DNA of 52,840 nucleotides from Gaiellaceae bacterium (GTDB lineage: Bacteria > Actinomycetota > Thermoleophilia > Gaiellales > Gaiellaceae), in the NCBI GenBank assembly GCA_050697655.1, contig JBOHAB010000001.1:1-52840 (forward strand), written 5' to 3'. Shown here one piece after another: positions 1 to 48,051 of this stretch. Position numbers and translations under genes: made by a program. Under the pieces are notes generated by a model. The model was not told the DNA's origin, ran no database searches, and saw only the letters and a program-made list of their open reading frames with translations. The number at the start of each line of letters is the position of its first letter. Position 1 is the stretch's first letter.

Positions 1-1
1 T

Positions 2-115
2 CGCGAGCGCGGGCGAGCCCTGCCACACTGGCTCGACCACAACAACCACGCGCGGCCGCACAGCTCGCTCGGAGGCAAGCCCCCGATCAGCCGCGTTCAC
101 AACGTCTGTGGGTAG
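2..115 (+). mobile_element. 3' end of a DDE (rve integrase-core) transposase gene, IS481/IS3-like; the element runs off the left edge
   Basis: The frame starting at nt 2 reads RERGRALPHWLDHNNHARPHSSLGGKPPISRVHNVCG, then TAG at 113-115. The WL-x-x-N-x-x-RPH-x-x-LGG-x-PP-x-SR tail is the conserved C-terminus of rve-type IS transposases. It is edge-truncated and so absent from the ORF track. Confidence 0.6.
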
Positions 116-995
116 GACACCTAGCTCGCTGGTCGGACCGGGGAGTGATATCCGCGATCAGCTCGGTCGCGCGCCAGGCGATGCCGCACTCTCGTTCCTC
201 GAGGAGTGCGTGCCATGCCGCTACGCCACGTTCGCGGATGAAGGCGTCGGGGTCTTTCGACGGGGCCAGCAAGTCGGGGTCGACGACGTCGACCGCCGGG
301 GTCTGTTCGGCTCGAGTAGCTTGCTCGACCGCACGCGCCGTGGCGGTGCGGCCGGGCTCGTCACGGTCGAAGCAAAGCGTGAGCCGCTTCATGCCGAGCC
401 GGGCGAGGCGCTCAAAGGTTCTCGGTTGGATTCCAAGACCGCCGAGCGCGACTGCGTTTTCAATCCCATGCGCTCGCAACTGGTGGACGTCCATGACGCC
501 CTCGACAAGGACGAGGTCGCGCCGTGCTTCGCCGCGGCTGGCGAGGACGTCCGAGAGGCCATACGGTGGGAGGTTGGTTCGGCTTCGGCCTCGCAGGTAG
601 AGGTAGCGGGTGTCGGCGCTATCGTCGTCCGAGAGCGTGCGCGCCCAGAGAGTGCCGACCTGTCGGTACTCGTCGCGCCAGGCGCCGCAAAGCCGTCCCG
701 GCCAGCGTGAGTCGGAGAGGACGCCAGCCTCGGTCACCTCCGCCTCTTCGTACCCTGCGCGTGTCAGGGCCTCGCGGGTGTGCTTCGGCGTGGGGACGAG
801 TCCCAGCCCCGAGTTCTCGATCATCTCGGCTGGGAGCCCGCGTCCCTCGAGGTAGGCACGCGCCTTGACGCCTCTCTCGCTGATGAGCTCCCGTTGACTG
901 AGCTCGAAGAAGTCGCCCAGGAGCTCCGCGCAACGGTCTCGTGGCTCGTTCCGGTCGAGCGGCGCAAGGTCGACCGATCGTCGCGTAGACGACAT
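87..995 (-). CDS. DnaG-like primase / TOPRIM-domain protein lacking the N-terminal zinc finger (probably a truncated plasmid/phage-type primase)
   Basis: From ORF 87..1103. It has a DnaG-like segment AYLEGRGLPAEMIENSGLGLVP, a TOPRIM Glu motif LVLVEGVMDVHQL and a DxD motif LCFDRDEPG. The first sensible in-frame ATG is at 995. The last ~10-15 codons (…CPTHRRCERG) run into the IS end and look non-native. Confidence 0.5.
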   Translation of the reverse strand: MSSTRRSVDLAPLDRNEPRDRCAELLGDFFELSQRELISERGVKARAYLEGRGLPAEMIENSGLGLVPTPKHTREALTRAGYEEAEVTEAGVLSDSRWPGRLCGAWRDEYRQVGTLWARTLSDDDSADTRYLYLRGRSRTNLPPYGLSDVLASRGEARRDLVLVEGVMDVHQLRAHGIENAVALGGLGIQPRTFERLARLGMKRLTLCFDRDEPGRTATARAVEQATRAEQTPAVDVVDPDLLAPSKDPDAFIRERGVAAWHALLEERECGIAWRATELIADITPRSDQRARCPTHRRCERG

Positions 996-1636
996 CCTCG
1001 AAGTCGAAGCCCTTGACCGCGGTCCTATCGATCGTCGCCGCCTCGCCCTGATCGAGACCGAGTCGGAAACTGAGGTCGTTGAGAAGCCGCTCGACGGCTT
1101 CACCGCGATCGCGGACCTCGCTCACGATCTCGGAGCGCCAGCGATGGAGCGGGCTGTCGCTGGTTTCGGGATCGAGTTAAGCGCCGCACCGCGGCCACCT
1201 GCTCCGCGCGCGCCGACTCGAGCAACGCCTCGAGCTTTGCGATGGCGCTCTTCTTACTCGTCTCGTCGAAGGTCGCGCCGAGAGCGTTGGTCACGTCCGT
1301 CAGCCACGTGCGCAGTGCGGCCGTGAGCTCGCCGTTCTCGTCGTCGAGCAGCGCCCGGGCGGAGTCGTCGATCCGCTGCGCGAGCGCATCGACGCTGCGG
1401 TCGAGGCTCTTCGTCATCTCCTCGAAGCGGTGCTCGACGACCTGGGTGTCGACCGTCGCGTTCGCGAGGCGCAGCACGCGCGCCCCCATCTCGACGCACC
1501 GGACGAGCGCGAGTTCTGGATCGTCGCTCGAAGCGACGAACGCGATCGCATCCGGATCGGTGATCCGAAGTTTGTCGACGACGAGCTCGTCGTCGACGAT
1601 GAGGACTGCGCTGGGCTCGGTGGCGAGGATCGTCAT
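976..1636 (-). pseudogene. Frameshifted and 3'-truncated hypothetical gene (coiled-coil N-terminus, start of a nuclease-like KGxxFE module)
   Basis: ORF 1100..1636 reads sensibly to …ARAEQVAAVRRL. The protein-like sequence then continues in another frame (ORF 619..1125): LDPETSDSPLHRWRSEIVSEVRDRGEAVERLLNDLSFRLGLDQGEAATIDRTAVKGFDFEDVVYATIGR. This implies one extra base near the TTAA at 1177-1180. Sense is lost at about 975, where the primase-like frame takes over. Confidence 0.45.
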
Positions 1637-1669
1637 GCACCTTCTCGTCGTCGACGATCGGCTCTCGTC

Positions 1670-2662
1670 TTATGTGCCTCCCGCGAGGCGCGCTAGATGT
1701 TGCTCGACGCGGAGTCGCTGGGCCGTCACTGCCTCGACGCTGTGTCTGTCCCCCGCCTCCTCGAGCAACTCGCAGAGGTCATCAAGCTTCGAGATCAGTG
1801 TCCTGAGCTGTCGGAGGTTGTCCCGCGCACCGGGGTCGCGCTCGGCGGCGCGAAGAAAGCAATCCTCGGCCTTCTTCGCGAGCACCACGTCTCGGTCGCG
1901 AACGGAAAGGTGAACGTAGACGGCACCTAAGGCGTTGAGGACAAAGGAGTCGTCGGGGAAGCGCCGGTCCAGCTCCTCGCCGTGGCGGCGTGCGTCGTCG
2001 AGGCGCCCTATCCGCCGCAGCGTCGCCGTCCACGACGTGTAGACGACTCTGTTCCGCTCGTAGTCCGGCTCGATCTCGATCGCACGCTCGTAGGCGGCGA
2101 GCGCGGAGGGGAGATCGCCAGCGTCCCGGTACGTGGGAGCAAGCACGGCGAGCACGGAGAGCGTCTCCTCCCACGTTGCTGCAACCTTCAGGCCTCGCTC
2201 CAGGAACGCGATGGCGAGCTCGTTGTCCTTGCCTCGGTACGCCGCGCCGAGAGCCTGCGCCTCTTGCGCGCTTGGGATGGTGCGCGCCGACGCGAGGATC
2301 TCCCGTCGCTCTTGCAGCGCGGTTCTCTCGCGCTCCCAACGGCCTCGGTCCTCGGCAGCCTTCGCGACTGCCTCGGCACGAAAGCGGTCGACGTACGCCC
2401 GATCTGAATCGTCGAGCCCGAGCGCGTCGAGGCGCTCGACGAGATCGGCTGCCTGGAAGTATTCGGAGCGATGCATGCGGCAGCGCAGAAGGCGCAAGAG
2501 GGCATCGACGTTCTCGGGGTCGACGTCGAGGACGGCTTGGTTGGCACGCACAGCCTCGTCGCTGAAGACCCCGCGCTTGGCAAGCTCGACTGCGGCCCGG
2601 CCGAGTTTCGAGAGGTCGGGGTCAACGGTTTCGCGGAAGGTCACTCTAGTTCTCTTCGGCAT
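1670..2662 (-). CDS. TPR-repeat protein, function unknown
   Basis: A 330-aa ORF with repeated helical-pair TPR-like units (e.g. LAIAFLERGLKV…, ALAAYERAIEIEPDY…, LNALGAVYVHL…). It is the only long ORF here with coherent composition. Confidence 0.6.
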   Translation of the reverse strand: MPKRTRVTFRETVDPDLSKLGRAAVELAKRGVFSDEAVRANQAVLDVDPENVDALLRLLRCRMHRSEYFQAADLVERLDALGLDDSDRAYVDRFRAEAVAKAAEDRGRWERERTALQERREILASARTIPSAQEAQALGAAYRGKDNELAIAFLERGLKVAATWEETLSVLAVLAPTYRDAGDLPSALAAYERAIEIEPDYERNRVVYTSWTATLRRIGRLDDARRHGEELDRRFPDDSFVLNALGAVYVHLSVRDRDVVLAKKAEDCFLRAAERDPGARDNLRQLRTLISKLDDLCELLEEAGDRHSVEAVTAQRLRVEQHLARLAGGT

Positions 2663-2897
2663 CCGTGCAGTTCGTCCTCAGGGCGTTCGCGGTCGGCCCG
2701 CCTGAACACCACGAGGGAGCGGCTCGGCTCCTCGTATGAAGGCGTCTCTCCCGAGGGCGGCCGAGCGACGCCCACCGGCGCGAGGAACGGTCGCAAGCAG
2801 CTCCGCCGGCCGTACGGCGACAGGCTGCTCCTCGTTATCCGTCCGACATTCACACGCGCCCGATGAACCGTTGGGCCGCTCGTGATTTGATTGCGCT

Positions 2898-3419
2898 ATG
2901 GATGCCCGCGCCCAATCCTTCGATGCGATATTCCGTAGAGACGTCCGGTACATGGTGCCTGTGTTCCAGCGTCGCTACGCGTGGGAGCGAGACCGGCAAT
3001 GGGATCCGTTCTGGCGGGATGTGCTCGAAGTCGTCGAGGCCTACGTACATGCCGCACGATCAAGTCAGACGGCGCCGCGCGGCGACGAGCTGCCTGTCCA
3101 CTTTCTCGGTGCCATTGTTGTCAAGCTCATGCCTTTCGGCGCCGGTCAGCTCGAACTCCGAGAAGTCATCGACGGGCAACAACGCCTCACCACGATCCAG
3201 CTGCTCATCGCGGCGGCGTCATCTGCCCTCGCGAACCTTGGTGCTTCCGAGCAGGCTGAGGTCTTGCGCGATCTCATTGAGAACCGCCCATATCTCACGA
3301 AGGGCCAGCCCGACGCCGTCCTGACAACTTGCAGTCGTCAGGACTCGCAGCCAACCCCGTCGCCCGTAGCCATCGAAGCCAACGGGATCCGGCGGACGCA
3401 CCGCGAAAGTTGCGTGTAG
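2898..3419 (+). pseudogene. N-terminal fragment of a GmrSD-type DUF262 (ParB-like NTPase) / DUF1524 protein
   Basis: It carries FRRDVRYMVPVFQRRYAWERDRQWDPFWRDV and the DUF262 signature VIDGQQRLTTIQLL. Family-like sequence ends near LIENRPYLTKGQPD (~3330). The rest, up to the stop at 3419, is non-homologous-looking filler. The second half of the DUF262 domain is missing here. Confidence 0.7.
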
Positions 3420-3474
3420 TGGTTGGTCGTCGTTGACGTGATCAGCGCTGCGAGTTATCTCGTTGTGAATGCGA

Positions 3475-4057
3475 TTACTCGTCAAGGATCGTTACACGAG
3501 GCCAGCGCTCAAATGGGCGCTTTCGCTCGAGCCGCTGGCGAAAGTCCTCGGCGGTCACGCGACGCGGGTTTCGCCGCAACACCATCCCGAGCAGGTCGCC
3601 AAGCCCGAGAGGCGCAACGACACGCAGTGAGTCGTCCGGCAGCAGGCGCACGGCGACGGCCGTCGCCGTCTCCGGCCACGTTGCGACGGCGTCTTCGATC
3701 GAGGTGAGAGGCTCTACGGGATAACCGAACTTGGCCGTGTACCACGTGTGGACGGCCGCCTGATTCTTGGCGTCCCAGTCGATCGTAGGCATCCGCGTCC
3801 GCAGGGCGGCTTGGACGTCGTAGTCTTCGTTCGGGCGCGAGATCGTCCTGGTCGAAGAAGGCGACGTCCACATCCTTCACGTCCCTGGGTTCGGCGAAGC
3901 CGTGGAGACGATCCCAGACGATGTCGCGAATGACACCGGCGCCTACTACCCACTCCGGCGGGTCGACGTCACGGACGGCTCGGAGCACCGAGACGAACCA
4001 GTCACTGGTGCGGAGGATCGACGCCAGCTGCCGTTCCTGATCAGCGGCCGGATCCAT
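3475..4057 (-). pseudogene. Nucleotidyltransferase-family protein (DUF925 / NTP_transf_6-like) interrupted by a frameshift
   Basis: The N-part comes from ORF 3509..4057 (…WVVGAGVIRDIVWDRLHGF…VKDVDVAFFDQDD). The C-part comes from ORF 3475..3873 (SRPNEDYDVQAAL…DWDAKNQAAVHTWY…WPETATAVAVRL…APLGLGDLL…RRNP). The two frames meet at about 3840. Confidence 0.6.
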
Positions 4058-4211
4058 GGCCTGACCGTAGCGGCGGTATCAGCGGTTTCGCCTCCGCCCG
4101 AATGCGTCCACGATCACTGGCAACCGGGCGTCGCCGATCATCCCGCGGTCGCCTAGTACCCACTCCGCTCGACCATGCAGCGCTAAACCGGTCGGCTTAG
4201 TCTCTGCGTCG

Positions 4212-4448
4212 ATGACGTACTCGGTGACGCTCGAGCACGGAACCGACGGGAGTTACCTTGCGTGGGTCCACGAGCTGCCCGGCTGTTTCGTGCGCGGAGA
4301 GACACGTGGCGACGTTGACGAGCGGCTGCCCGCGGCGATCCAGCATTCCACGACTGGCTGCGGATGCTGGGAGTTCGCCCGCCCAACGTCCGCCCACGGC
4401 ACTGAGATCGTCGCGTTCCCTTCCTCGTCGAGGTGCCACGCAGGGTGA
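4212..4448 (+). CDS. HicB-like (UPF0150) antitoxin-fold protein, possibly frameshifted near 4341
   Basis: YSVTLEHGTDGSYLAWVHELPGCFVRGETRGDVDERLPAAI is a typical HicB/UPF0150 N-terminus. After 4341 an alternative frame reads AFHDWLRMLGVRPPNVRPRH and stops at 4403-4405. That looks more native than the listed tail. Confidence 0.55.
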   Translation: MTYSVTLEHGTDGSYLAWVHELPGCFVRGETRGDVDERLPAAIQHSTTGCGCWEFARPTSAHGTEIVAFPSSSRCHAG

Positions 4449-4618
4449 AGGACGCGGACGCACGCGGCGAACCCAGCTGGGACGAGTGAGAGCACCGATT
4501 CGCCGAAGATCGCCAGGACTTCGACGAGCCAATCCCCCGCACTCACGTCATGCGCCGGTGTTAGTTGCGTGACCCTCTTCCTGCGACCGCCCCACATGAT
4601 CGCGCCCGAGTCTTCCAT
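4379..4618 (-). pseudogene. N-terminal fragment of a hypothetical protein, truncated where it collides with the HicB-like gene
   Basis: ORF 4253..4618 reads DWLVEVLAIFGESVLSLVPAGFAACVRVLHPAWHLDEEGNATISVPWADVGRA and looks protein-like. The remainder is low-complexity and overlaps the convergent HicB-like ORF. Confidence 0.3.
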
Positions 4619-4750
4619 GCATACAAGGCAGGCCGAGGTGCTACCGGCGTGGAGTATGGGATCAAGTCAGAGGTGGGAGCACAACCGCCGCGCACTGGTG
4701 GCCGCGCTTGAGTTCATCGTCCAGTCACGCTGCGCCACCTAAATAGACGG

Positions 4751-5221
4751 TCAATGCTCGACGCCCTCAGGGAAGCGGTCACGGACTAGGTTGAGTTCGA
4801 TGCCGTGCTCGAGCCACGCCTTCAGTCCGGCGAGCACGAGGGTGAAGCCACCGGTCGCCTCGATCGCCTGCTTCGCGATCGATTCCTGATCGCCCGTGAA
4901 GCCGGTGTTGGTGACGGTGATGAAGGTGTTGTCGCCTCTAGGCGCGAACGCCCATGCAACCGCGGTCTGGCCACCTCCACGGTAGGCAGGCCACCGCATC
5001 ACGATCCGCTCGTTCTCCTCAATCAGATCGACGTCGACGTCGACGGACTGGTCGTACATCTCCCACTCCCAGCGCACGCGCTTACCGGGTTTGAGCTTCC
5101 CGCTGCTGCGCGTGAACCAGAACTTGGTCGTGACTTCCGGATCAACGACAGCCCTGAACACCTCGGCCACCGGCCGGCGAATAAGCATTCCTGCCTCAGC
5201 CGCAGTAACGTCTTCATTCAT
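4751..5221 (-). CDS. SRPBCC / AHSA1 (Activator of Hsp90 ATPase homolog 1-like) family protein
   Basis: MNEDVTAAEAGMLIRRPVAEVFRAVVDPEVTTKFWFTRSSG…VDVDLIEENERIVMRWP. The ATG at 5221 is preceded by AGGAGG, so the longer listed ORF (to 5317) is probably upstream read-through. Confidence 0.75.
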   Translation of the reverse strand: MNEDVTAAEAGMLIRRPVAEVFRAVVDPEVTTKFWFTRSSGKLKPGKRVRWEWEMYDQSVDVDVDLIEENERIVMRWPAYRGGGQTAVAWAFAPRGDNTFITVTNTGFTGDQESIAKQAIEATGGFTLVLAGLKAWLEHGIELNLVRDRFPEGVEH

Positions 5222-5409
5222 CGCCGTGTACCTCCTGATCGGAGTTTCATCGCGTCGTGGGGCCTGAGCCTCGCGCTTGGCGGCCTCGATGCCTCGCTCG
5301 AGGAACCTCGCGACCATCCGCCGGCCGACCTCGGGATCGAGTGCGAAACGCTCGGCATCGCGCTCGTGCCAGTCGGCGACCGGCTCGTAGGCCTTCTCCT
5401 CGGGGCAGG

Positions 5410-5525
5410 GTGGCCGTAGTGGTGGTCGATCATCGCGATGCTCGAACCCGTGAAGCGCGAGACCGCGAAGACGGGGATCCCGGCGCGTCCACGCGTGAAT
5501 GGCCCCACGCGAGGCAGGTCAGCTG
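5410..5525 (-). pseudogene. Remnant of the C-terminus of a tyrosine recombinase / phage-type integrase
   Basis: ORF 5218..5631 contains …RAGIPVFAVSRFTGSSIAMIDHHYGH. This matches the conserved integrase C-terminal box (…aG.p…vs..lGHss..mt..hYgH) that carries the catalytic Tyr. Only ~35-40 codons survive, and the frame decays on both sides. Confidence 0.55.
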
Positions 5526-5531
5526 CATTCG

Positions 5532-6416
5532 CTATCGCCGACGGCTTGTCTGGCCGAGAACGTGCGCGAGGAGCGCCGAGTAGTCGTGTTCGCCCCAGCC
5601 GGAGTCGGCTGCATCGCGCAGCCAGGCGCACGAAGCCGTTGCAAGCCGCATGTCGACGTTCGTGAGAGCGGCCGCTCGGACGATGAGCTCTGCATCCTTA
5701 CGGGCCAGGGAGAGCGTGAACCGGGCTGGATAGCGACCGCTCTCGATCATGGTCCAGCGCCGTGCCGCCTGGGCGGCGAGCGGAGTCCGTTCGAGGACAG
5801 ACTTCGTCGCTTCCCGCGACAACCCGAGCCCGTCTGCGAGGGCGATCGCCTCGGCCAGTACGGCCAGAGCGCCGATGAGCGTCGAGTTCGCGACCAGCTT
5901 CGCCGACGCCCCTGTGCCGAGAGGACCGACGTGCTCGACCGTTCCGAGCGTGGAGAGCAGAGGTCGATGCTTCGACATGAGCCACTCCGGTCCGCCGACG
6001 AACATGACGAGAGTGCCCGCCTCAGCCTCGCGAATGCTGCCCAGCACTGGAGCATCGAGCACGTGTACGCCTCGAGGCACGTTGACGCTCAGCCGGGCGA
6101 TTCCCGCCGGTCCGACGGTGGACAGTTCGATGATCGTCGTTGCGTTGCGCACTCCGGCCACGAGTCCCGTCGGGCCGTCAGTTACCGCCTCCAGGGCGGC
6201 CTCGTTCTCGACCATCGTCAGTACGACTTCCGCGTTGGCTGCTGCTGCCGCCGGAGTGTCTGCCACGGCAGCACCGAGCGCCTTCAGGGGAGTGGCCTTT
6301 TCCCGCGACCGATTCCAGACGACGACAGCATGCCCGGTGCTGAGCAGGCGAGTGGCGATACGGCTGCCCATCGCACCAAGGCCGATCACGGCGACGGGTG
6401 CTGCGTCGGCGGGCAT
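5532..6416 (-). CDS. NAD(P)-dependent oxidoreductase, 3-hydroxyisobutyrate/6-phosphogluconate dehydrogenase family
   Basis: It has an N-terminal Rossmann motif VAVIGLGAMGSRIATRLLSTGHAVVVWNRS and family-typical length. The likely start is the ATG at 6416 (MPADAAP…). Confidence 0.8.
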   Translation of the reverse strand: MPADAAPVAVIGLGAMGSRIATRLLSTGHAVVVWNRSREKATPLKALGAAVADTPAAAAANAEVVLTMVENEAALEAVTDGPTGLVAGVRNATTIIELSTVGPAGIARLSVNVPRGVHVLDAPVLGSIREAEAGTLVMFVGGPEWLMSKHRPLLSTLGTVEHVGPLGTGASAKLVANSTLIGALAVLAEAIALADGLGLSREATKSVLERTPLAAQAARRWTMIESGRYPARFTLSLARKDAELIVRAAALTNVDMRLATASCAWLRDAADSGWGEHDYSALLAHVLGQTSRRR

Positions 6417-6946
6417 CACGCAGCGTCGTTCGCGTCGGACCTCAGCCAAGCCAGAACCTCGGCGCCGTGCGTCTCCGGCTTGGCCACGGGATGGAAGATC
6501 TTCGTGATGCTGCCGTCGCTGATGATCGTCAGGCGCTCGTAGAAGCGCCGGCCGGCGACCTCGAGTGTCGGTAGCCCAAGCGCCCCGGCCAGGAGGAACC
6601 CGGGGTCGCTGAGCAGTGGGTACGGGATCGACGCACGAGTGGCGAACCGGCGCTGCTGCTCAAGCACCTGTGAGCTCAGCCCCATGACGCGCGCGCCAAG
6701 CTTGCTCAGCTCCCGTTCGTGGTCACGGAACGAACAAGCCTCGGCGGTACACCCGCGCGCTCCCGGGATGCGATCCCAGCCGCGAGGGTCCCGCTCGCCC
6801 GCGACCGCCGTTCGCGGGTAGACGTAGAGGACGACGTATCTGCCGGGCCTCTCCGTTAGGTGCACGACACCTCGGGAGGACGGAAATTGCAGCGCCGGAA
6901 GCGGCTCGCCTTCGAGCCTGGCCGCCAAAGAAGGGCCCACCCGCAC
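6416..6946 (-). CDS. Peroxiredoxin (Bcp / AhpC-TSA family)
   Basis: It carries the motif PGARGCTAEACSFRD (peroxidatic Cys context) plus IPYPLLSDPG. The upstream part of listed ORF 6416..7138 overlaps the MocR gene and is Arg/Ser junk. The likely start is GTG at 6946 or 6940. Confidence 0.7.
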   Translation of the reverse strand: MRVGPSLAARLEGEPLPALQFPSSRGVVHLTERPGRYVVLYVYPRTAVAGERDPRGWDRIPGARGCTAEACSFRDHERELSKLGARVMGLSSQVLEQQRRFATRASIPYPLLSDPGFLLAGALGLPTLEVAGRRFYERLTIISDGSITKIFHPVAKPETHGAEVLAWLRSDANDAA

Positions 6947-7001
6947 GAACCTAGGACTCGGCCCGGCGCCAATCAAGCGCGCATTGGCGGCGCCGCTGAG
7001 G

Positions 7002-8507
7002 CTAGACCACGACGTCGAGCCGGCTCGAGTCGATGGAGGCCAGCGCCCGCCGATAGGCCTTCCACGCGCCTGCCAGCCGCCGGATCGCCTCCTCGAGCAC
7101 GACCTCCTCGTGATCGAAAGACAAGCGAACGAACTCATCGAACCGTCCCGTGGTGGACATCACCGAACCCGGTGCGATGGAGACGCCGCGGCGATGCGCG
7201 ATCTGCGCGAGCTCTGTCGAGCTCCCATCCGGGAGGCGCACCCAGAGCGAGAGACCACCTTGCGGTCGCCGCCACTCCCATTCAGGGAGATACCGCCCGA
7301 GGAGCTCCTCTAGGAGCGTCAAGCGTGTCTCGAGCTCGCGGCAACGGCACGCGCGGACGTACTCGGAACGAACGAGCAGATTCACAGCTATCGCCTGGCT
7401 CGGAAGGGAAGTACCGAGATCCGCCACCGCCTTGAGTCGTCCGAGTTGGACGATGGTAGGCCGTGGCGCCCGTACCCAGCCCACCCGCAGGCCGGCCCAA
7501 CAGATCTTGCTGAAAGAGCCGATCGAGACGATCGTCGTGTTGCGCGCGTAGGCTGCGAGCGGCCGTGGAGGCTCGGGACCCAGCACGAGCTCGGCGAGTG
7601 TGTCGTCCTCGACGATCGGAAGCTCGGTCGCTCGCGCGAACCGGACCAGCTCGCGTCTTGCCTGATCCGGCATGACCGAGCCCGTGGGATTGTGGAACGT
7701 GGGCATCAGGTAGACGGCACTGACGCGATTCTCGACGACGGTTCGCTCAAGCAGTTCCACGTCAGCGTCAGACCGGCAAACCGGGACGGGCAGAATCCGG
7801 GCCCCGACCGTTCGGAAGACGTCGATTGCGCCGGGGTAGGTGGGGTCCTCCATCACCACTACGCCTCGGTGGCTCGCGCAGCTTCGGGCGAACAGGCTGA
7901 TCCCTTGCTGGGCACCGCCGGTGACGAGGATCTCCTCGCCGCTGGATGGAAGACCATGCGCCGTCAGGTGATCAGCGATCGCCTGACGGAGTGGTGGATA
8001 GCCGAGCGGAAAATAGCCGTGCGAGAGAGTCAGTTCGCGGATGTCAACTGTGGCGGCCGCTTCCGCCAGCGCCTCCCTGATTGCCGGGCTCGGCGGTGCC
8101 GAGCTCCCGAGGAGGTCGATCGTGTCCGGCGACGGTTCGCCTAGACGGCGAAAGAGGAGGTTCCGCTGGAGCGAGGTGGCGAGCGCGGCCGCACGCGCAT
8201 CGACACCGACCGTGTCGCCGCGTATGACGTGCGTTCCTCGCCCCTGCCGACGGTCGACGAGCCCTCTGCGCTGGAGTAGCTCGTAGGCGGCAGAGACCGT
8301 CCCTCTCGCAATGCCGAGCTCCGTCGCGAGGACGCGCTCCGGGGGAAGACGGGTGCCAGCGGGCAAATCGTCGCGCTCGACGGCGTCTGCGAGCGATGTC
8401 CCGAGCCGTTCATGGAGGGAGCCGTCACCCTCGTCCCAGCCGTCCAGGGCTTGCCAGAGATCGAGCGAAAGAGCCCTGCCGAGTGATGCTCGACTGCCTT
8501 TGCGCAT
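7002..8507 (-). CDS. MocR/GntR-family regulator with a fold-type I aminotransferase-like domain; PdxR-like by context
   Basis: It has an N-terminal wHTH (LPPERVLATELGIARGTVSAAYELLQRRGLVDRRQGRGTHV) and a C-terminal AAT-like domain with SFSKICWAGLRVGW. It is divergent from pdxS. The start is taken as ATG 8507 (MRKGSRAS). Confidence 0.8.
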   Translation of the reverse strand: MRKGSRASLGRALSLDLWQALDGWDEGDGSLHERLGTSLADAVERDDLPAGTRLPPERVLATELGIARGTVSAAYELLQRRGLVDRRQGRGTHVIRGDTVGVDARAAALATSLQRNLLFRRLGEPSPDTIDLLGSSAPPSPAIREALAEAAATVDIRELTLSHGYFPLGYPPLRQAIADHLTAHGLPSSGEEILVTGGAQQGISLFARSCASHRGVVVMEDPTYPGAIDVFRTVGARILPVPVCRSDADVELLERTVVENRVSAVYLMPTFHNPTGSVMPDQARRELVRFARATELPIVEDDTLAELVLGPEPPRPLAAYARNTTIVSIGSFSKICWAGLRVGWVRAPRPTIVQLGRLKAVADLGTSLPSQAIAVNLLVRSEYVRACRCRELETRLTLLEELLGRYLPEWEWRRPQGGLSLWVRLPDGSSTELAQIAHRRGVSIAPGSVMSTTGRFDEFVRLSFDHEEVVLEEAIRRLAGAWKAYRRALASIDSSRLDVVV

Positions 8508-8660
8508 TGGCCTCAGCGTTGCCACGAGAGCGCTCCATTGGCATGTACGCCCCGGGCTTCCAATGCATGAGACCAAACGCTCTTCAAACGACTAGAGTAT
8601 CTCGCCACGCTACGAGGGTACCAATGCCCGCTTGATTGGCCTTGCTGCATTGGCTCAATG
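8505..8660. promoter_or_regulatory. Divergent PdxR-like/pdxS control region with a repeated CATTGG/CCAATG hexamer (candidate MocR operator set)
   Basis: CATTGG occurs at 8505-8510, 8536-8541 and 8648-8653. GATTGG occurs at 8634-8639. The reverse complement CCAATG occurs at 8560-8565 and 8621-8626. A TAGAGT -10-like box lies at 8593-8598. Confidence 0.45.
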
Positions 8661-15970: not shown

Positions 15971-17431
15971 ATGGCTGACGTCACCGCGGCACGGGACGGA
16001 TCACGCCGAAAAACTCAGAGACTGACCGTGTTCAAGGTGTGGCCGACCAAGCACGATCGAGAGGCGTTTCGCGCGGTGATGAGTGGAGACGGTGTTGGGA
16101 GCTCGCTCGAGAAACATCGCGTCGTTCACGCGTTTCGCTTCTTCGAGGAAGCCGTCTCGGAGTGGGGTTCCGCGATACCGGAGGCTGAGCGCGGTCTCCA
16201 TTTCCAAGCATTCGAAGCCGTTGTTCGATCACAACTGCACATCGTGTGGATTGACCTCGACGGTCGCGACAACGCCCAGGTCATCTTCGAGACGCTCAAC
16301 GATCGAGGTGCGCCACTGAACGCAATCGACCTGGTCAAGAACCTCGTCTTTCAGCACCAGTACGGCGGCGACCAGGCCGAAGAGCTGTACGAACAGCACT
16401 GGTCGTGGATAGAGGACGACTGGTGGCAGCGGAAGATTCGGCTTGGCCGGCTTGACCGCGTCCAAGCGGACGTCTTCCTGCAGCACTGGCTCCAGATGGA
16501 ACTCGGCCGAGAAGTCAATTCCGACTTCCTGTTCAAGTCCTTCGCGCAGATGCTCGAGGCCGAGGCGCCGGATGTGAAGGCGCTGATCCCGCAGTTCGCT
16601 GAGGACGCCCGCCTCTATCGCTCATTCTCGTCGCAGCTCCAGGGATCGGCCAGACAAGAGTTCTTTTCGCGCTTGAACGTCCTGAACACGACCACGCCGT
16701 TCCCGCTGGTGCTCTTCCTGTTCAAGCAACCACAAGACGTCTTGAACTCTGAGGACGTCGACAGATGCCTGGAGACGATCGAGGACTACCTCGTGCGTCG
16801 GATGCTTTGGCGTGGAACCGCCCAGGGATACAACCGACTGTTCACCGAGCTCGTGAAGGAGGTCAAGCAGGCTCCGCGGGACGCGCCGGAGATCATCGCG
16901 CGACAGCTCGCTGACGCGGAGGGGAGCTCGCGACTGTGGCCACGCGACTCCGACTTGTTTCCCGTCCTGAGCGAAAGCCGAGCATATGGGTCGGAAGCCA
17001 TCGCGAGAAACCGACTTCTCGACGTTCTCTGGGAGGTGGAGCGACGCCGCCTCCGCTCCGCCAAGCACGAGCAGCTCGACAGGCCGCCGGGTTTGCAGAT
17101 CGAGCACGTGATGCCGCAGTCGTGGAAGAAGAACTGGCCCCTGCCAGACGTCACGGGAGAATCTGCTGAGTTGCTTGAGGGCCAGCGGAACGTCGCGATC
17201 AACCGGCTCGGAAACCTCACACTTGTGACCGGCGCACTGAATCCCGCGCTCTCCAACGCGGCTTGGCCGACAAAGCGCCCGGGTCTTGCTCAACATAGCC
17301 TCCTCGCGATGAATCAGCAGCTGGTCGAGATGTACCCCGAGACGTTCGACGAGGCCGCGATAGCCGCTTGCAGTAACGAGTTAGCGAGACACGTGCTGGC
17401 GGTATGGCCGGGACCGCCGTCTGACCCCTAG
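15971..17431 (+). pseudogene. C-terminal two-thirds of a GmrSD-type protein: second half of DUF262 plus the DUF1524 His-Me-finger nuclease domain
   Basis: The frame is open from 15896. It has TVFKVWPTKHDREAF and NAQVIFETLNDRGAPLNAIDLVKNLVF (second conserved DUF262 block). It also has the DUF1524 motifs LQIEHVMPQSW and NRLGNLTLVTGALNPALSN. It lacks the DGQQR N-terminal block, which sits at 2898-3330. Confidence 0.75.
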
Positions 17432-28556: not shown

Positions 28557-28968
28557 GCGCTCCGAGTCTATTCACGTGCGCCGCGGGCTTGCGATCCCGC
28601 TGGACGAGATCACGCTCCGCACCTCGCGCTCGAGCGGGCCCGGCGGCCAGCACGCCCAGAAGACCGAAACCCGGGTCGAAGCGATCTTCGACGTCGACGC
28701 GTCGGCAATCCTCGACGAGGCGCAGAAGGAGCGCGTTCGCTCGAGGCTTGGACCGGTGGTGCGAGCGGTCGCGCAGGACGAACGAAGCCAGTCCCGCAAC
28801 CGAGAGCTCGCGCTCGAGCGCCTCGCGGCCGCGCTCCGCGGCGCCCTCCGGACGAGGCGTCCGCGGCGTCCGACCAGGCCGACCCAGGGGGCGAAGGAGC
28901 GTCGCCTCTCGCAGAAACGTGTCCGCAGCCGCACGAAGCGGCTCCGCCGGCCTCCCGAGGACGACTAA
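28555..28968 (+). CDS. arfB: Alternative ribosome-rescue factor ArfB (peptidyl-tRNA hydrolase, GGQ protein)
   Basis: It has RSSGPGGQHAQKTETRVE and a basic tail (RRPRRPTRPTQGAKERRLSQKRVRSRTKRLR), as in ArfB/YaeJ. The ATG at 28555 overlaps the divergent HAD start (CATG). Confidence 0.85.
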   Translation: MRSESIHVRRGLAIPLDEITLRTSRSSGPGGQHAQKTETRVEAIFDVDASAILDEAQKERVRSRLGPVVRAVAQDERSQSRNRELALERLAAALRGALRTRRPRRPTRPTQGAKERRLSQKRVRSRTKRLRRPPEDD

Positions 28969-28974
28969 TCCCGG

Positions 28975-29003
28975 TTGTCATCCCGGGCGCGCGGCTCTAC
29001 GAT
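28975..29003 (+). promoter_or_regulatory. Candidate sigma-70-type promoter for a leaderless transcript of membrane-protein paralog 1
   Basis: TTGTCA (28975-28980), 17-nt spacer, TACGAT (28998-29003). The ATG at 29010 lies 6 nt after the -10. Confidence 0.45.
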
Positions 29004-29009
29004 CGCTCC

Positions 29010-29594
29010 ATGCTGCCCTGGCGTCGAGTGGCAGTGCCTGCCTTCCTGGGTGTGCTCGGCCTGATCTGGGTGGCGGCTCACGCGCTGGCGCACGACGTCG
29101 TCGCGCAGCCGTCGACGGGCGGGCATTCCGCTCACGGGGCCACGGCTGAGACGTACGTCGCCTACCTCCCCACGTCCCTGGCGCTCTGCCTCACCTTGGC
29201 GGTCGCGATCGCGGCCTGCCTGGCCCTCGGGAAGCGCTGGGCAGGGAGGTTCGGCAGGTCGCTCTGGCTCTTCGGCGTCGTCCCCGTGCTCGGATTTGCC
29301 GCGGACACGCTGGTCGAGCTGGGAGCCAATGGACCGACCGTCGCCGCCGGAGGCGAGCTCGTGCCGGCGTTCCTGGTCGGCCTCCTCGTCCAGCTTCCCT
29401 TCGCGCTGGTCGCCGTCGGGCTCGGAGGCAAGCTCCTGTGGCTCGCCGAGCGCCTGGCGTGGGCGCTCCGGGCCGCGATCGTCGGGCTGCCCGTCGCGCT
29501 CTTCGCTCCCGCCTCGGCGCCCGCTGCCGGGCCGAGTGCGCTGCGCCTCGCGGGCTCCTGTCGCTCGCGCGCCCCTCCGGGCGCCCTCTCCTAG
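29010..29594 (+). CDS. Four-TM membrane protein, paralog 1 of a tandem triplet upstream of the copper cluster
   Basis: This is the C-terminal part of listed ORF 28122..29594. It shares with paralogs 2/3 an N-terminal helix with WxAAHALAH, the blocks SLWLFGVVPVLGF, GLLVQLPFALVAVGL and LWLAERLA, and a tail ending R-A-P-P. Confidence 0.6.
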   Translation: MLPWRRVAVPAFLGVLGLIWVAAHALAHDVVAQPSTGGHSAHGATAETYVAYLPTSLALCLTLAVAIAACLALGKRWAGRFGRSLWLFGVVPVLGFAADTLVELGANGPTVAAGGELVPAFLVGLLVQLPFALVAVGLGGKLLWLAERLAWALRAAIVGLPVALFAPASAPAAGPSALRLAGSCRSRAPPGALS

Positions 29595-29620
29595 CTTCCG
29601 GAGCAACGGCGCCGAGCCCG

Positions 29621-29649
29621 GGCCTCGTGCCCCCACCACCCACGAGGCC
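29621..29649 (+). terminator. Stem-loop after paralog 1 (GGCCTCGTG-11 nt-CACGAGGCC), no U-tract
   Basis: Perfect 9-bp inverted repeat starting 27 nt after the stop. Confidence 0.3.
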
Positions 29650-29809
29650 GAAGCGGCCCGAAGCCCGCGTGCTCCGGAACGAGGCTCTCGCCACGACGCC
29701 GGCCGTCGCCGAGCACCCCAAGGCTCGTCTACTCAGCCGTCGTCGGAGAGCCTTGGTGCGAGCCGGCGCCGTCGTTGCCTGACACCTCCGCGACGGCGCC
29801 GGCTCTATG

Positions 29810-29838
29810 CTGTCAGACAAGCAGATGGCCTCTACCAT
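29810..29838 (+). promoter_or_regulatory. Candidate promoter for paralog 2, paralogous to the paralog 1 promoter
   Basis: CTGTCA (29810-29815), 17-nt spacer, TACCAT (29833-29838), with GTG at 29848. The -10 context GGCCTCTACCATTGCTCT resembles GGCTCTACGATCGCTCC upstream of paralog 1. Confidence 0.4.
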
Positions 29839-29847
29839 TGCTCTGCT

Positions 29848-30420
29848 GTGAGGCGTCGCCGGCTCGCCGTCCCGGTACTTCTCGCTCTGTCCGGCCTCGG
29901 TTGGGCAGCTGCGCACGCCGTCGCGCACAGGACGGCGATGGCCGACGACGGGATGGCCGCCGGGGTCCTGGATCGGTACGTGGCGTACCTGACCACGTCG
30001 GTGGCGCTCTGCCTGGCGCTGGCGCTCCCGCTTGCCGCCGGCGCGCTCGTCGGCAGGCGCTGGAAGGGCGCCTCCATGCGCTCGCTCTGGCTCTTCGGCG
30101 TCGTCCCCGTTCTCGGCTTCGTCGGTCACACGGCCGCAGATCCGCTCTTCTCAGAAGCAGGGAACGGCGTGAGCCTCGCTTCGCTGGCGCAGGTCGCCCT
30201 GATCGGCCTGCTCGTCCAACTTCCCTTTGCGCTCGTCGCGGTCGGTCTCGCACGTCAGGCCTTGTGGCTCGCTGAGCGGCTCGCCAGGACCGAGATCGTG
30301 CCCGCTCGCACCGTCCAGGCTCCGACGCCCAGCCACCCACGGCCGCGCGGGCGTCGCGCGCCGGCCTTCCGGCTCGACTTCGCCCGGACCGAGCGCGGCC
30401 CGCCTCTTCTCGTGGCCTGA
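29848..30420 (+). CDS. Four-TM membrane protein, paralog 2
   Basis: This is the C-terminal part of listed ORF 29296..30420. It has GWAAAHAVAH, SLWLFGVVPVLGF, GLLVQLPFALVAVGL, LWLAERLA and a tail with ERGPP. A ~40-nt stretch is nearly identical to paralog 1 (29259-29300 vs 30083-30124). Confidence 0.6.
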   Translation: MRRRRLAVPVLLALSGLGWAAAHAVAHRTAMADDGMAAGVLDRYVAYLTTSVALCLALALPLAAGALVGRRWKGASMRSLWLFGVVPVLGFVGHTAADPLFSEAGNGVSLASLAQVALIGLLVQLPFALVAVGLARQALWLAERLARTEIVPARTVQAPTPSHPRPRGRRAPAFRLDFARTERGPPLLVA

Positions 30421-30481
30421 CACGGGCAAACCGAAGACACGCCGACCGGCGTAGTTTCGGCGAGAGGAGAGGGGGAAAGCT

Positions 30482-30601
30482 ATGGACCAGGTCGCAGGGA
30501 CGACCTGGCAGAAAACTGGGGAGGTGGAGCACGCTGGCGTTCGGGTGCGCCCGAACGGCTGCGCCGCTTTCCGCGTGGAGACCTCCGTGAAGAGGGCATG
30601 A
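30482..30601 (+). CDS. 39-codon ORF with strong SD, translationally coupled (ATGA) to paralog 3
   Basis: GAGAGGAGAGGGGGAAAG ends 3 nt before ATG 30482. It encodes MDQVAGTTWQKTGEVEHAGVRVRPNGCAAFRVETSVKRA. The stop TGA at 30599-30601 overlaps ATG 30598. It is below the ORF-track size cut-off. Confidence 0.35.
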   Translation: MDQVAGTTWQKTGEVEHAGVRVRPNGCAAFRVETSVKRA

Positions 30602-36905: not shown

Positions 36906-37301
36906 TTAGCGCTTGGAGAACTGCGGCGCCTTGCGGGCCTTGTGGAGGCCAGCCTTCTTGCGCTCGACGATGCGCGCGTCGCGCGTGAGGAAGCCCTCGC
37001 GCTTGAGGACGCCGCGAAGCTCGGGATCGGCCTCGACGAGCGCGCGGGCGATGCCGTGACGGAGCGCTCCGGCTTGGCCACTCGGGCCGCCGCCGTGGAT
37101 CCTCGCGCGGATGTCGAAGCGCCCCTCGGCGCCCGCGGCGCGAAGCGGCGCCGTCGCCGTCGAGCGGTGCGCCTCGCGCGGGAAGTAGGACTCGAGCGAG
37201 CGGCCGTTGACCCAGGTCGCTCCGTCGCCCGGGCGCAGGATCACGCGCGCGACGGAGGTCTTGCGCTTGCCGGTGCCCTGGTACCGCGCGATCTCACTCA
37301 T
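36906..37301 (-). CDS. rpsI: 30S ribosomal protein S9
   Basis: It has [14 protein letters not shown] and the C-terminal …[14 protein letters not shown]. Confidence 0.95.
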
Positions 37302-37735
37302 TTGTCGAGGGGAAGCGGTTGCGGGTCCTGGGCCTCGTGCGGATGCTCCGGGCCCGCGTACACCTTGAGCTTCGTGATCTGCCGGCGGGCGAGCCTGTTG
37401 CGCGGCAGCATGCCCTTGACCGCCTTGCGGATGACCTCCGTCGGTCGCCGCTCGAGCTGCTCGGCGAGCGTCCGCGAGCGGAGGCCGCCGGGGTAGCCCG
37501 AGTGCCGGTAGTAGAGCTTCTGCTCGAGCTTGTTCCCGGTCACGGCGATCTTCTCCGCGTTGACCACGACGACGAAGTCGCCGGTGTCGACGTGCGGCGT
37601 GTACTGCGGCTTGCGCTTACCACGGAGCGTGTCGGCGATGCGCGTCGCCAGGCGCCCGAGGGTCTGACCCTCGGCGTCGACGAGATACCAGCGCTGCTCG
37701 ATCTCCTTCGGCTTGGCGGTGTAGGTCTTCATCAC
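37298..37735 (-). CDS. rplM: 50S ribosomal protein L13
   Basis: It has [36 protein letters not shown] and [10 protein letters not shown]. The start is GTG 37735 or ATG 37732. Confidence 0.95.
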
Positions 37736-37743
37736 ACAGAAAA

Positions 37744-37767
37744 TCGGCGGACAAGGCCGTCCGCCGA
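37744..37767 (-). promoter_or_regulatory. Terminator-like hairpin plus U-run in the rplM 5' leader (candidate attenuator / r-protein leader)
   Basis: The minus-strand RNA reads UCGGCGGAC-GGCCUU-GUCCGCCGA (9-bp stem), followed by UUUUCUGUGUG and AUG. A TAGAAT -10-like box (minus strand, 37774-37779) lies just upstream. There is no obvious SD. Confidence 0.4.
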
Positions 37768-37787
37768 GCGCGGATTCTAGCAGCCGT

Positions 37788-37971
37788 GCAGCGGCCGGAG
37801 GTCTGGTGGGGAAGTCCGCTGGCGCCGGGGGCGCTCCAGACTAAGCCGGGCAGCGCGGTCGGTCGCGGCGCGTAGCAGAGCTACGTGTCGCGGGCGAACG
37901 TGCTGAGCCGGCGCCGTGTCTGGGGCGTCATCCCGCCCGGCGAAATTTCACATCAGGCCTCCGGCCGCTGC
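37788..37971. repeat. 184-nt long imperfect inverted repeat forming one rod-like hairpin (about 73 pairs); candidate structured RNA or palindromic element
   Basis: The perfect 14-bp closing stem is GCAGCGGCCGGAGG (37788-37801) / CCTCCGGCCGCTGC (37958-37971). Helices continue inward to a 14-bp apical stem (37863-37876 / 37880-37893, loop AGA). Hand-folded. Confidence 0.85.
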
Positions 37972-39218
37972 TAGTCCGCGGGCGTGGGGCTCGGCTCGAC
38001 CCGGCGGCCGAAGCCCCGGCGGGCGATCCAGAGGGCCGGGACGACGACGAGCGCCGTCCCCCCGATCGCGAGGGCGGCGACGCCGATCGCGGTCAGCGCG
38101 TAGCCGCCGAGGAGGGCGAGGCTCGCGCCCGTCATCCCGGAGAGCAGGTCGTTGAAGCCGAGCAGCTTGCCGCGCTCCCACGGGAGCGTGCAGTCCGCGA
38201 GCTGGGCGGTCGCCGCCACGAAGGACAGGTTCCAGCCGAGGCCGAGTCCGAAGAGGGCGAGGGCCGTTGCCGGCACGCTTTCGATCCACAACAGGCTGAT
38301 CGTGGACAACGCCATGAGCGCGAGGCCGCCGACGAGCGCCGGCGGGCGGCCGATCCTGTCGATCAGGTCGCCGACGAAAAGCACGAGCGCGTACATCCCG
38401 AGCACATGGGCGCCGATGATCGGAAAGACCGCCTCGCCGGAGTGGTGGTGATGGTCGACGACCACGGCGCCGGTGAGGGTCATGACGCCGACCATGACCC
38501 CGAAGCTCGCCTGCGCGGCGAGGATCGACGGGATCACGCCTCTCCGGCGGAGGATCTCCTTGAGCGGCGCGGGCGGTCGCGGGTCGGCGTGGGGCGTGCC
38601 GACAGCGAGGAGCTCCGCGATCCGCTTCGGGTCGGGACGCACGAAGAGGACGAGCGCCAGCCCGACGAGCATGAAGCCCGACCCTGCGAGCCAGAGGAGC
38701 GCGAGCGAGTCGCCGTCCAGCTCTCGCCCGGAGAGGAGCGGGCTGAACACCGCGGGGCCCAGGATCGCGCCGAAGACCGCGCCGACGAGGACGAGGGCGA
38801 TGCCGCGCGCCCGACGCTCCGGCGGGTACATATCGCCGGCCGCCGTCCTGGCGAGCAGGGACGTGCCGCCGGCGGTGCCGACGCAGACCAGGCCCAGGAA
38901 GACGGGAAACGCCAGCTCGAAGGCACTGCCGAGCGCCGCCAGCACGCCGCCGAGAGCGCCGATGACGAAGCCTGAAGCGATCACGGGCACCCGGCCGAAC
39001 CGGTCCATCGCGCGTCCGGCGGGAAGCGCCGCGAGCGCCCCGGAGGCGAGCACGATCGCGGGCCCGAGCCCGAGGAGGCCGCGAACGCCGATCACGAGCA
39101 CGAACGTCAACGAGGCGACGGCGGCCGAGAGCTGGAGCATGCCCGAGTTGGCGGCGAGCGAAGCCGAGAGAAGCCCGGTGTTCCGCCGGATCGGTAGCTG
39201 CTGGGGAGTCGAGCTCAC
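37971..39218 (-). CDS. MFS transporter
   Basis: It has about 12 hydrophobic helices and MFS loop motifs (GRAMDRFGRVP; …DLIDRIGRPP). The start is taken as GTG 39218; upstream listed residues are Arg/Ser-rich overlap with the UDG-like gene. Confidence 0.75.
   Translation of the reverse strand: MSSTPQQLPIRRNTGLLSASLAANSGMLQLSAAVASLTFVLVIGVRGLLGLGPAIVLASGALAALPAGRAMDRFGRVPVIASGFVIGALGGVLAALGSAFELAFPVFLGLVCVGTAGGTSLLARTAAGDMYPPERRARGIALVLVGAVFGAILGPAVFSPLLSGRELDGDSLALLWLAGSGFMLVGLALVLFVRPDPKRIAELLAVGTPHADPRPPAPLKEILRRRGVIPSILAAQASFGVMVGVMTLTGAVVVDHHHHSGEAVFPIIGAHVLGMYALVLFVGDLIDRIGRPPALVGGLALMALSTISLLWIESVPATALALFGLGLGWNLSFVAATAQLADCTLPWERGKLLGFNDLLSGMTGASLALLGGYALTAIGVAALAIGGTALVVVPALWIARRGFGRRVEPSPTPAD

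Positions 39219-44782: not shown

Positions 44783-48051
<3,269 letters not shown>

Follow-up and report, generated by a model that had tools for sequence, protein, structure and literature searches.

The sequence at positions 37788-37971 of the 52,840-nucleotide stretch of Gaiellaceae contig JBOHAB010000001.1 analysed here (the whole stretch is referred to as the window) forms a long hairpin between the genes of an MFS transporter and of ribosomal protein L13 (rplM). This hairpin is probably a copy of a non-autonomous repeat resembling transposable elements of the miniature inverted-repeat type (MITEs), about 165-185 bp long and palindromic throughout. A first-pass annotation made from the sequence had proposed a + strand RNA and had listed an ERIC- or MITE-like palindromic element as an alternative. 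It is the alternative that is favoured by the insertion polymorphism and the dispersed copies described below, and the appealing interpretation as an orphan structured RNA gene gives way to the documented insertion of a mobile palindromic repeat.

When folded as RNA, the + strand of the element (the better-folding strand, called the top strand below) gave a single rod-like hairpin of 184 nt with 77 pairs, 54 G-C, 12 A-U and 11 G-U, at a minimum free energy (MFE) of -147.1 kcal/mol (z = -12.3 against 200 dinucleotide shuffles). The - strand gave -107.7 kcal/mol (z = -6.4 in the same test), and with DNA parameters the values were -77.7 (+) and -58.5 (-) kcal/mol. Internal loops were only 1-5 nt long and the rod was continuous, with no large central bubble, as had been noted before. 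The helices, the AGA loop and the list of G-U positions drawn by hand in the first-pass annotation proved essentially correct, and folding of both strands bore out the predicted energy advantage of the + strand. Alignment of the two arms yielded 10 G/T, 1 C/A, 5 G/A-type and 1 G/G mismatches and 9 gap positions, in agreement with the strand-biased G-U pattern described earlier; G was on the + strand in 16 of the 17 mismatches (two-sided binomial p ~3e-4 under strand symmetry). The element is the longest inverted repeat of the window, where it occurs once. No similarity to the arms was found inside the window that would mark them as an inverted duplication of local sequence.

The sequences used for comparison were L123, a Logan short-read contig (run SRR27067746) 99.3% identical to the window over 3.3 kb; L001/L114, from a second metagenome-assembled genome (MAG), GCA_975305615.1; L124 and L125, contigs bearing further copies; and L045, a Solirubrobacteraceae MAG locus. 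The element can be divided as follows.

37788..37971, + (better-folding top strand): whole palindromic element (folds, pair list, arm alignment)
37798..37961, +: core homologous to the other copies, GAGGTCTGGTG...CATCAGGCCTC (blastn, alignments, nhmmer and covariance model matches to L124, L125 and L045)
37788..37797, +: outer 10-nt arm GCAGCGGCCG, only in the window copy and L123; pairs with 37962-37971
37962..37971, +: outer 10-nt arm CGGCCGCTGC, partner of 37788-37797; final base shared with the MFS stop codon
37788-37801/37958-37971: basal stem, perfect over 14 bp (fold)
37836..37851, +: 5' half of the conserved module (CCAGAC, TAA internal loop, GCCGGGC)
37908..37923, +: 3' half of the conserved module (CCGGC, GCCGT internal loop, GTCTGG)
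37863..37893 (37863-37876/37880-37893), +: apical 14-bp stem with AGA loop; three pairs are G-U on the + strand and C-A on the - strand

The outer arm 37788-37797 is not homologous to the ends of L124 and L125, where CTAG stands. The sequence of the apical part is entirely different in L045, yet still helical.

The MFS/rplM junction was compared with 80 related rplM loci of GTDB and with closer relatives found by protein cluster and homology searches, altogether more than 85 MFS/rplM loci. (An automated scan of the stop-to-rplM spacer length over the loci produced more noise in high-GC DNA than could be used.) A blastn search of the 80 loci with the hairpin gave a match in the same organism only, and the hairpin was missing from more than 85 orthologous loci, including those of the closest relatives, with 94% MFS identity. 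In the relatives the MFS stop codon lies 0-18 nt upstream of CGGCTGC-TAGAAT. The following junctions, all of them free of the hairpin, are the most informative.

L002 (94% L13 identity): MFS stop TGA, then directly CGGCTGCTAGAAT
L110-L112 (88.8% nucleotide identity over 4.2 kb): GAATGACCCTTGCTACAAT
L116, L117 (close relatives): MFS-rplM gap of about 56 nt
L121 (94% MFS identity): GACTAG-CGAGG-ACGGCTGCTAGAAT
L122 (94% MFS identity): GACTAG-CAGACGCTGAC-CGCTGCTAGAAT

The corresponding sequence of the window is GACTAG-(184 nt)-ACGGCTGCTAGAAT. Comparison with the relatives' junctions therefore indicates an ancestral stop codon and promoter, with a spacer of 5-11 nt into which about 175-184 nt were inserted in one recent lineage. 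As the first-pass annotation had it, position 37971 falls within the MFS stop codon (CTA on the + strand, TAG on the - strand), and the hairpin is located between this stop and the very probable rplM promoter. The hairpin is unchanged in the second MAG assembly and differs by two substitutions (37901 T>G and 37934 C>G) in the independent contig L123, which rules out an assembly artefact. The distribution shows an insertion common to very close strains only.

Homologous copies were found at unrelated loci. A second copy, L124:11432-11603, is located on a different contig between the stop codons of two convergent genes; in blastn the window core was 85% identical to L124:11436-11599 over 164 nt, and a 26-nt block, CCGGCGCCGTGTCTGGGGCGTCATCC, was identical in the two. 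This copy was detected by querying the protein collection with the concatenated six-frame translation of the hairpin, which matched P0165, a protein whose C-terminus is the translation of the L124 copy. A single 53-aa frame of the - strand, used as protein query, gave no matches. One match of the exhaustive protein search described below led to the copy L125:9019-9190, directly after an Orn/DAP-decarboxylase gene (covariance model score 100.9 bits). A profile of the window and L124 copies matched L045:2805-2908 in nhmmer with E = 0.025 (L045 was not part of the model). This is a 115-nt rod hairpin (L045:2804-2918) between the guaA stop codon and the rplM promoter, diverged and sharing the inner module alone. 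DNA copies are thus known from four independent loci, those of the window, L124, L125 and L045.

When 1.84 billion representative proteins were searched exhaustively with HMMER, the + strand translation revealed at least 12 further copies (58-85% peptide identity), either as short open reading frames (ORFs) or as heads or tails of ORFs running into unrelated genes. The neighbouring genes appeared by eye to be fmt-like, TrmH-like, RlmN-like and HhH-GPD glycosylase-like. P0165, P0167-P0172, P0174-P0176 and P0178-P0180 consist of translated repeat, either over their full length or at one end (peptide ...GGAPDQAGQCGRSRRVAALRAAGERADPAPCLERHPARPNFTSGL). In L124 and many other copies a Shine-Dalgarno-like GAGG is followed by an ATG that opens an ORF of 52 codons, which explains how gene callers come to report the repeat as "proteins". 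A TAA interrupts this ORF in the window copy, and in L125 its stop is lost. A real small protein was rejected because variable sites showed no codon-position bias (9/11/11) and no Pfam match was obtained. These database entries are artefacts of annotation and can become joined to real genes next to them, and public protein databases thus hold at least 12 "proteins" that are merely translations of a repeat.

Plasmid and phage collections gave no match to the hairpin, and six patterns detected no family member in viral contigs. Counted across contigs rather than per genome, the family is widespread and apparently sparse. It belongs to uncultured soil Thermoleophilia (Gaiellales, Solirubrobacterales), the host lineage of L124 and L125 being putative, and a repeat family is thereby defined in a poorly studied lineage. 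Since a 2024 survey of prokaryotic MITEs mentions neither Thermoleophilia nor Gaiella nor Solirubrobacter (PMC11602168), the family is probably previously undescribed.

The ends of the L124 and L125 copies are alike. With the element in parentheses, L124 reads ...GGC-CTAG-(AGGTTTGATG...CATCAGGCCT)-CTAG-TCGGG, and L125 reads ...GAGAC-CTAG-(AGGGCTGATG...CATCAGGCCTCT)-CTAG-CGGG. From a reading of the frames, the left TAG of L124 ends a + strand gene and the right CTA is the called stop of a - strand gene; in L125 the gene upstream ends with the left TAG. GAGGNNTGATGNGAAA is present on both strands of both copies. The CTAG...CTAG arrangement would fit duplication of TA or of CTAG upon insertion into CTAG. 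IS5-type elements duplicate 4 bp at CTAG-like sites. IS630 inserts at TA with a preference for CTAG and duplicates TA (Tenzen & Ohtsubo 1991, as cited in PMC2170065). A TA duplication within CTAG is compatible with L124 and L125, unlike the window copy, which has CG, and unlike L045.

The family has several of the features by which MITEs are recognized. It is small (copies of 123-184 nt, MITEs ranging from tens to about 400 bp) and has no transposase gene; it has terminal inverted repeats (the arms are complementary over their full length, with 14-bp perfect ends in the window copy); and its copies are dispersed at unrelated loci, their presence differing between related genomes. In kind, and counted across contigs, this agrees with the dozens of copies with terminal inverted repeats and target-site duplications that the first-pass annotation had named as the mark of a plain MITE. 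Bacterial MITEs are described as small elements with terminal inverted repeats and flanking direct repeats but no transposase, which form long RNA stem-loops and often stand at the 3' ends of genes (Delihas 2011, PMC3184786). Correia/CREE of Neisseria, ERIC of Enterobacteriaceae, RUP of S. pneumoniae and Chunjie of Geobacter resemble the present family in their size of 100-235 bp, their complementary arms and their stem-loops of about -100 kcal/mol or stronger. They are also without a transposase of their own, intergenic, often located 3' of genes and co-transcribed with them. Further likenesses are the TA-containing flanks of Correia- and ERIC-type repeats and the variable presence of bacterial MITEs between close strains (all PMC3184786). 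The window family differs from these elements in that no sequence similarity to them was seen, in its host (Thermoleophilia, ~70% GC) and in its apparently low density, and also in that its best-conserved part is internal and all copies have a marked fold bias towards one strand. With the IS630/Tc1-mariner group and the MITEs derived from it (Stowaway-like) the likeness lies in the C-TA-G on both sides of L124 and L125, which resembles the IS630 target. In contrast, the window copy is flanked by CG/CCGG and not by TA, and a 4-bp CTAG duplication of the IS5 type fits equally well.

The part best kept across the window, L124, L125 and L045 copies is CCAGAC-YAA-GCCGGGC paired with CCGGC-GCCGU-GUCUGG. 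L045 has paired changes in this module, CUGGAC/GUCCAG and GCUGG/CCAGC (CCAGC-GCCGT-GTCCAG in the 3' half), and according to RNAalifold 13 of 47 pairs were changed on both sides with pairing kept. Paired changes in the arms can mean two sites for one transposon protein, and a single-stranded structure is not proven by them. Variable columns were fewer in the 3' arm (11/81) than in the 5' arm (20/78), with p = 0.07. In all five DNA copies the top strand had the lower MFE (top/bottom, kcal/mol).

window: -147.1/-107.7
L123: -151.6/-111.1
L124: -114.4/-87.0
L125: -118.3/-95.7
L045: -86.5/-74.5

When the window, L123, L124 and L125 sequences were placed on the window structure, the top strand had 11, 10, 11 and 8 G-U pairs and 0, 0, 2 and 2 A-C oppositions, respectively. 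Between copies there were about 10 changes between a Watson-Crick pair and a top-strand G-U pair, as compared with about four giving A-C, which is suggestive and not significant. Local mutational bias was rejected as the cause of the G-U asymmetry by the substitution spectrum of the window lineage in ~4.2 kb of flanking genes (+ strand: C>T 19 vs G>A 24; C>A 10 vs G>T 7). Deamination of C linked to transcription or replication would be expected to affect the opposite strand. Orientation to the neighbouring genes is mixed: in the window and in L045 the top strand runs antisense to the genes on either side, and in L125 it is the sense strand of the gene upstream. Selection at the locus against a hairpin on the transcribed or lagging-template strand is an unnecessary assumption, the bias being common to copies in other orientations. 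Since all copies have the same bias, it travels with the element. Selection for the folded top strand at the level of the family is a reasonable conclusion, and the G-U bias would point to past or continuing selection on the single-stranded top strand, whether RNA or DNA. RNAs of ERIC and Correia elements act in an orientation-dependent manner.

These observations bear on three other explanations. A dedicated small RNA gene on the + strand at the window locus, whether 6S-like, an antisense RNA or an RNase III substrate, would account for the + strand fold being 39 kcal/mol more stable and for the length of ~184 nt and the largely double-stranded rod, both of which are close to 6S RNA. Such a gene is, however, very improbable: the hairpin is missing in all relatives, including those with 94% MFS identity, which largely refutes it, and homologous copies stand at unrelated loci. 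The proposal of a locus-specific + strand RNA under selection did not hold, because the insertion is lineage-specific, the copies occur elsewhere in either orientation and the bias is family-wide; the bias is best seen as a family trait that does not point to a locus-specific RNA gene. Rfam, to which the first-pass annotation had pointed for 6S and other models, gave no match of element length. The whole window returned nothing at gathering thresholds, and three weak matches obtained around the element at E values up to 10 (E 3.9-6.2) lay over the rplM leader hairpin or inside rplM. They are not homologues of the element, the leader hairpin being matched as a generic terminator. 6S RNA itself was rejected for want of a model match up to E 10, of a central bubble and of conservation in relatives. 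No sigma-70-like promoter and no U-tract were found in the element on either strand, so that the RNA gene would lack both a + strand promoter-like site and a terminator tail; the sole terminator-like match was the rplM leader (37744-37767). The sequence after the element is TAGTCCGCGG on the + strand and ACGGCTGCTA on the - strand, and an intrinsic (Rho-independent) terminator was rejected because no U-tract follows the hairpin. The lack of a U-tract on either strand also weakens the idea that the hairpin is a locally selected terminator or insulator that stops MFS read-through into the rplM promoter, or antisense transcripts. This idea draws on the position of the hairpin exactly between stop codon and promoter, on an unrelated 60-nt hairpin of L113 at the same junction, on the L045 copy between guaA and rplM and on the L124 copy between convergent genes, where a bidirectional terminator is expected. 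Against this, the strand transcribed with the MFS gene is the weaker-folding one, most relatives have no hairpin at all at the junction, and a terminating effect could be a side effect of the insertion and not the reason for the element; the explanation is improbable, if slightly less so than the RNA gene. An integron attC site, an imperfect palindrome with the core sites RYYYAAC (R'') and GTTRRRY (R') at its ends, was rejected as well: the window copy ends in GCAGCGGCC... and the L124 and L125 copies in CTAGAGG..., there is no GTTRRRY, and the neighbours are core genes (rplM, guaA, MFS).

The explanation that comes closest to the MITE-like repeat is a strand-specific element, either mobilized as single-stranded DNA by an HUH enzyme in the manner of REPIN or IS200/IS605 or acting as an RNA hairpin, with the internal loop YAA/GCCGU as putative protein recognition site. 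For this speak the better fold of the same strand in five of five DNA copies, the excess of top-strand G-U over A-C with about ten against four conversions, flanking genes without a matching mutational bias, the conserved internal loop and flanking helices with paired changes in L045, and the less variable 3' arm (p = 0.07). On the other hand, the difference between ten and four lacks significance, and descent makes many G-U positions common to the copies; the paired arm changes may reflect two transposase-binding sites; the surroundings of the copies showed no HUH/RAYT or TnpA gene; the ends have no conserved cleavage motif of the GTAG type; and orientation is mixed (antisense in the window and L045, sense in L125), with no promoter. 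REPIN and REP elements, which are present in hundreds of copies and go with a RAYT gene, are similar in consisting of two inverted hairpin halves in intergenic DNA, and their single-stranded form would explain a strand-specific fold, but the window family is much longer and has no terminal GTAG, and no RAYT-like gene was found in the window or around L124 and L125. On balance a strand-specific element is unlikely. It is likewise doubtful that the 5' arm drifts only through G-U-preserving changes against a conserved 3' arm, the family then being a new strand-specific class of mobile hairpins in Actinomycetota that targets stop codons.

If the hairpin is a MITE-like repeat, it would have been inserted into TA or CTAG, as by IS630/Tc1-mariner or IS5-type transposases, and mobilized in trans by a transposase encoded elsewhere. 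At ~70% GC, TA and CTAG sites would for the most part be stop codons and -10 boxes, which may be why the copies abut stop codons and leave genes undamaged. In compact GC-rich genomes such sites can thus be landing pads, and insertion beside an essential ribosomal-protein promoter can be harmless; the rplM promoter and leader of the window are intact after the insertion. At this locus the MFS mRNA probably has the co-transcribed - strand of the element as its 3' end, and the hairpin of this strand, of -108 kcal/mol, may stabilize or end the MFS transcript.

Several observations weigh against the MITE-like repeat. The window copy, whose empty site is known from L121 and L122, has no clean target-site duplication. 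The window core (37798-37961) is flanked by CG/CCGG and then by a further 10-bp complementary extension, unlike the ends of the other copies. CTAG is itself a palindrome, and in L124 and L125 it may equally be an extension of the inverted repeat; these two assemblies also have apparent frameshifts, so that sequencing errors may account for small indels in them. The window and the related loci searched contained no transposase with matching ends, nor a full-length insertion sequence with GAGGNNTGATGNGAAA ends, and no transposase, HUH enzyme, reverse transcriptase or integrase was present in the window or near L124 and L125. Purely double-stranded cut-and-paste leaves the strand-specific fold unexplained. 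Because likeness to L045 is confined to the inner module, the internal and not the terminal part is best conserved, which is unusual for a MITE. Finally, the element occurs once in the 52.8-kb window and once in each 20-kb stretch of L124 and L125, and the covariance model of the core detected no additional copies in 0.68 Mb of related loci or in 0.29 Mb of viral contigs. A metagenome scan with the terminal 21-mer GCAGCGGCCGGAGGYCTGRTG returned 28 single-arm chance matches and no second copy; the 21-mer is a poor query because its outer 10 bp are particular to the window copy.

The gene order around the hairpin, on the - strand, is UDG-like gene, MFS transporter, hairpin, rplM, rpsI, glmM and glmS. 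The features next to the hairpin are as follows.

37971..39218, -: MFS transporter, 415 aa, stop codon TAG at 37971-37973 (ORF list; PF07690 in L001; homologues)
37774..37782, -: extended -10 box of rplM, TGCTAGAAT, 5 nt from the left end of the element, which is upstream of the box
37738..37767, -: rplM leader, GC hairpin 37744-37767 followed by a U-run, outside the element (terminator-like match; conserved over the loci)
37298..37732, -: rplM, ribosomal protein L13 (PF00572; ATG at 37732)

The same box (TGCTAGAAT, GCTACAAT or CTATCAT) occurs at equal distance from rplM in the 80 related loci, and on this ground the -10-like sequence at 37774-37782 is very probably the rplM promoter. Almost all of the 80 Thermoleophilia loci share the whole 5' layout of rplM, with an extended -10-like box, a GC hairpin and a U-run that stands 6-10 nt ahead of the ATG. 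The leader stems are clade-specific (CGGCGGAC/GTCCGCCG vs GCCGCGCG/CGCGCGGC) and gave no Rfam match; the leader is a candidate L13 autoregulatory leader or attenuator. The unrelated hairpin of about 60 nt in L113 (4249-4310), a close relative, occupies the identical MFS stop/rplM promoter junction and folds more strongly on the strand antisense to the genes (-33.2 vs -20.5 kcal/mol).

Elsewhere in the window, guaB (IMPDH, 44783-47422, - strand, 879 aa) has its IMPDH domain split by an insert of ~360 aa with Hint/intein-splicing matches below the Pfam cut-offs; the IMPDH of L121, 520 aa long, is without the insert. Positions 1-8600 have a lower GC content (0.66 vs 0.69-0.74) and encode a toprim/primase-like protein, a GmrSD_N fragment and an NTP_transf_6 protein, and a full GmrSD-type restriction endonuclease is encoded at 15971-17431; these two regions may be an island or defence region. 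About 2 kb at 28557-30597 contain no ORF of coding-like GC3, and the enclosing 4-kb bin has an AT skew of -0.16. Translations of this segment are Arg-rich nonsense except for one C-terminal stretch, which is membrane-protein-like and, judged by eye, similar to the product of the next gene.

Other palindromic elements, of 130-140 nt, were observed in Solirubrobacterales loci (L053:1457-1593 and 1676-1808; L057:554-694, 802-942 and 1669-1791). Their outer stems are 16-31 bp long (27-31 bp in L053 and the first L057 element) and their interiors are non-palindromic, which looks like a repeat family other than that of the window hairpin. Motifs related to these elements (GGCATTGCTGGCGCGGCAGTATAG) recur upstream of rplM in several loci.

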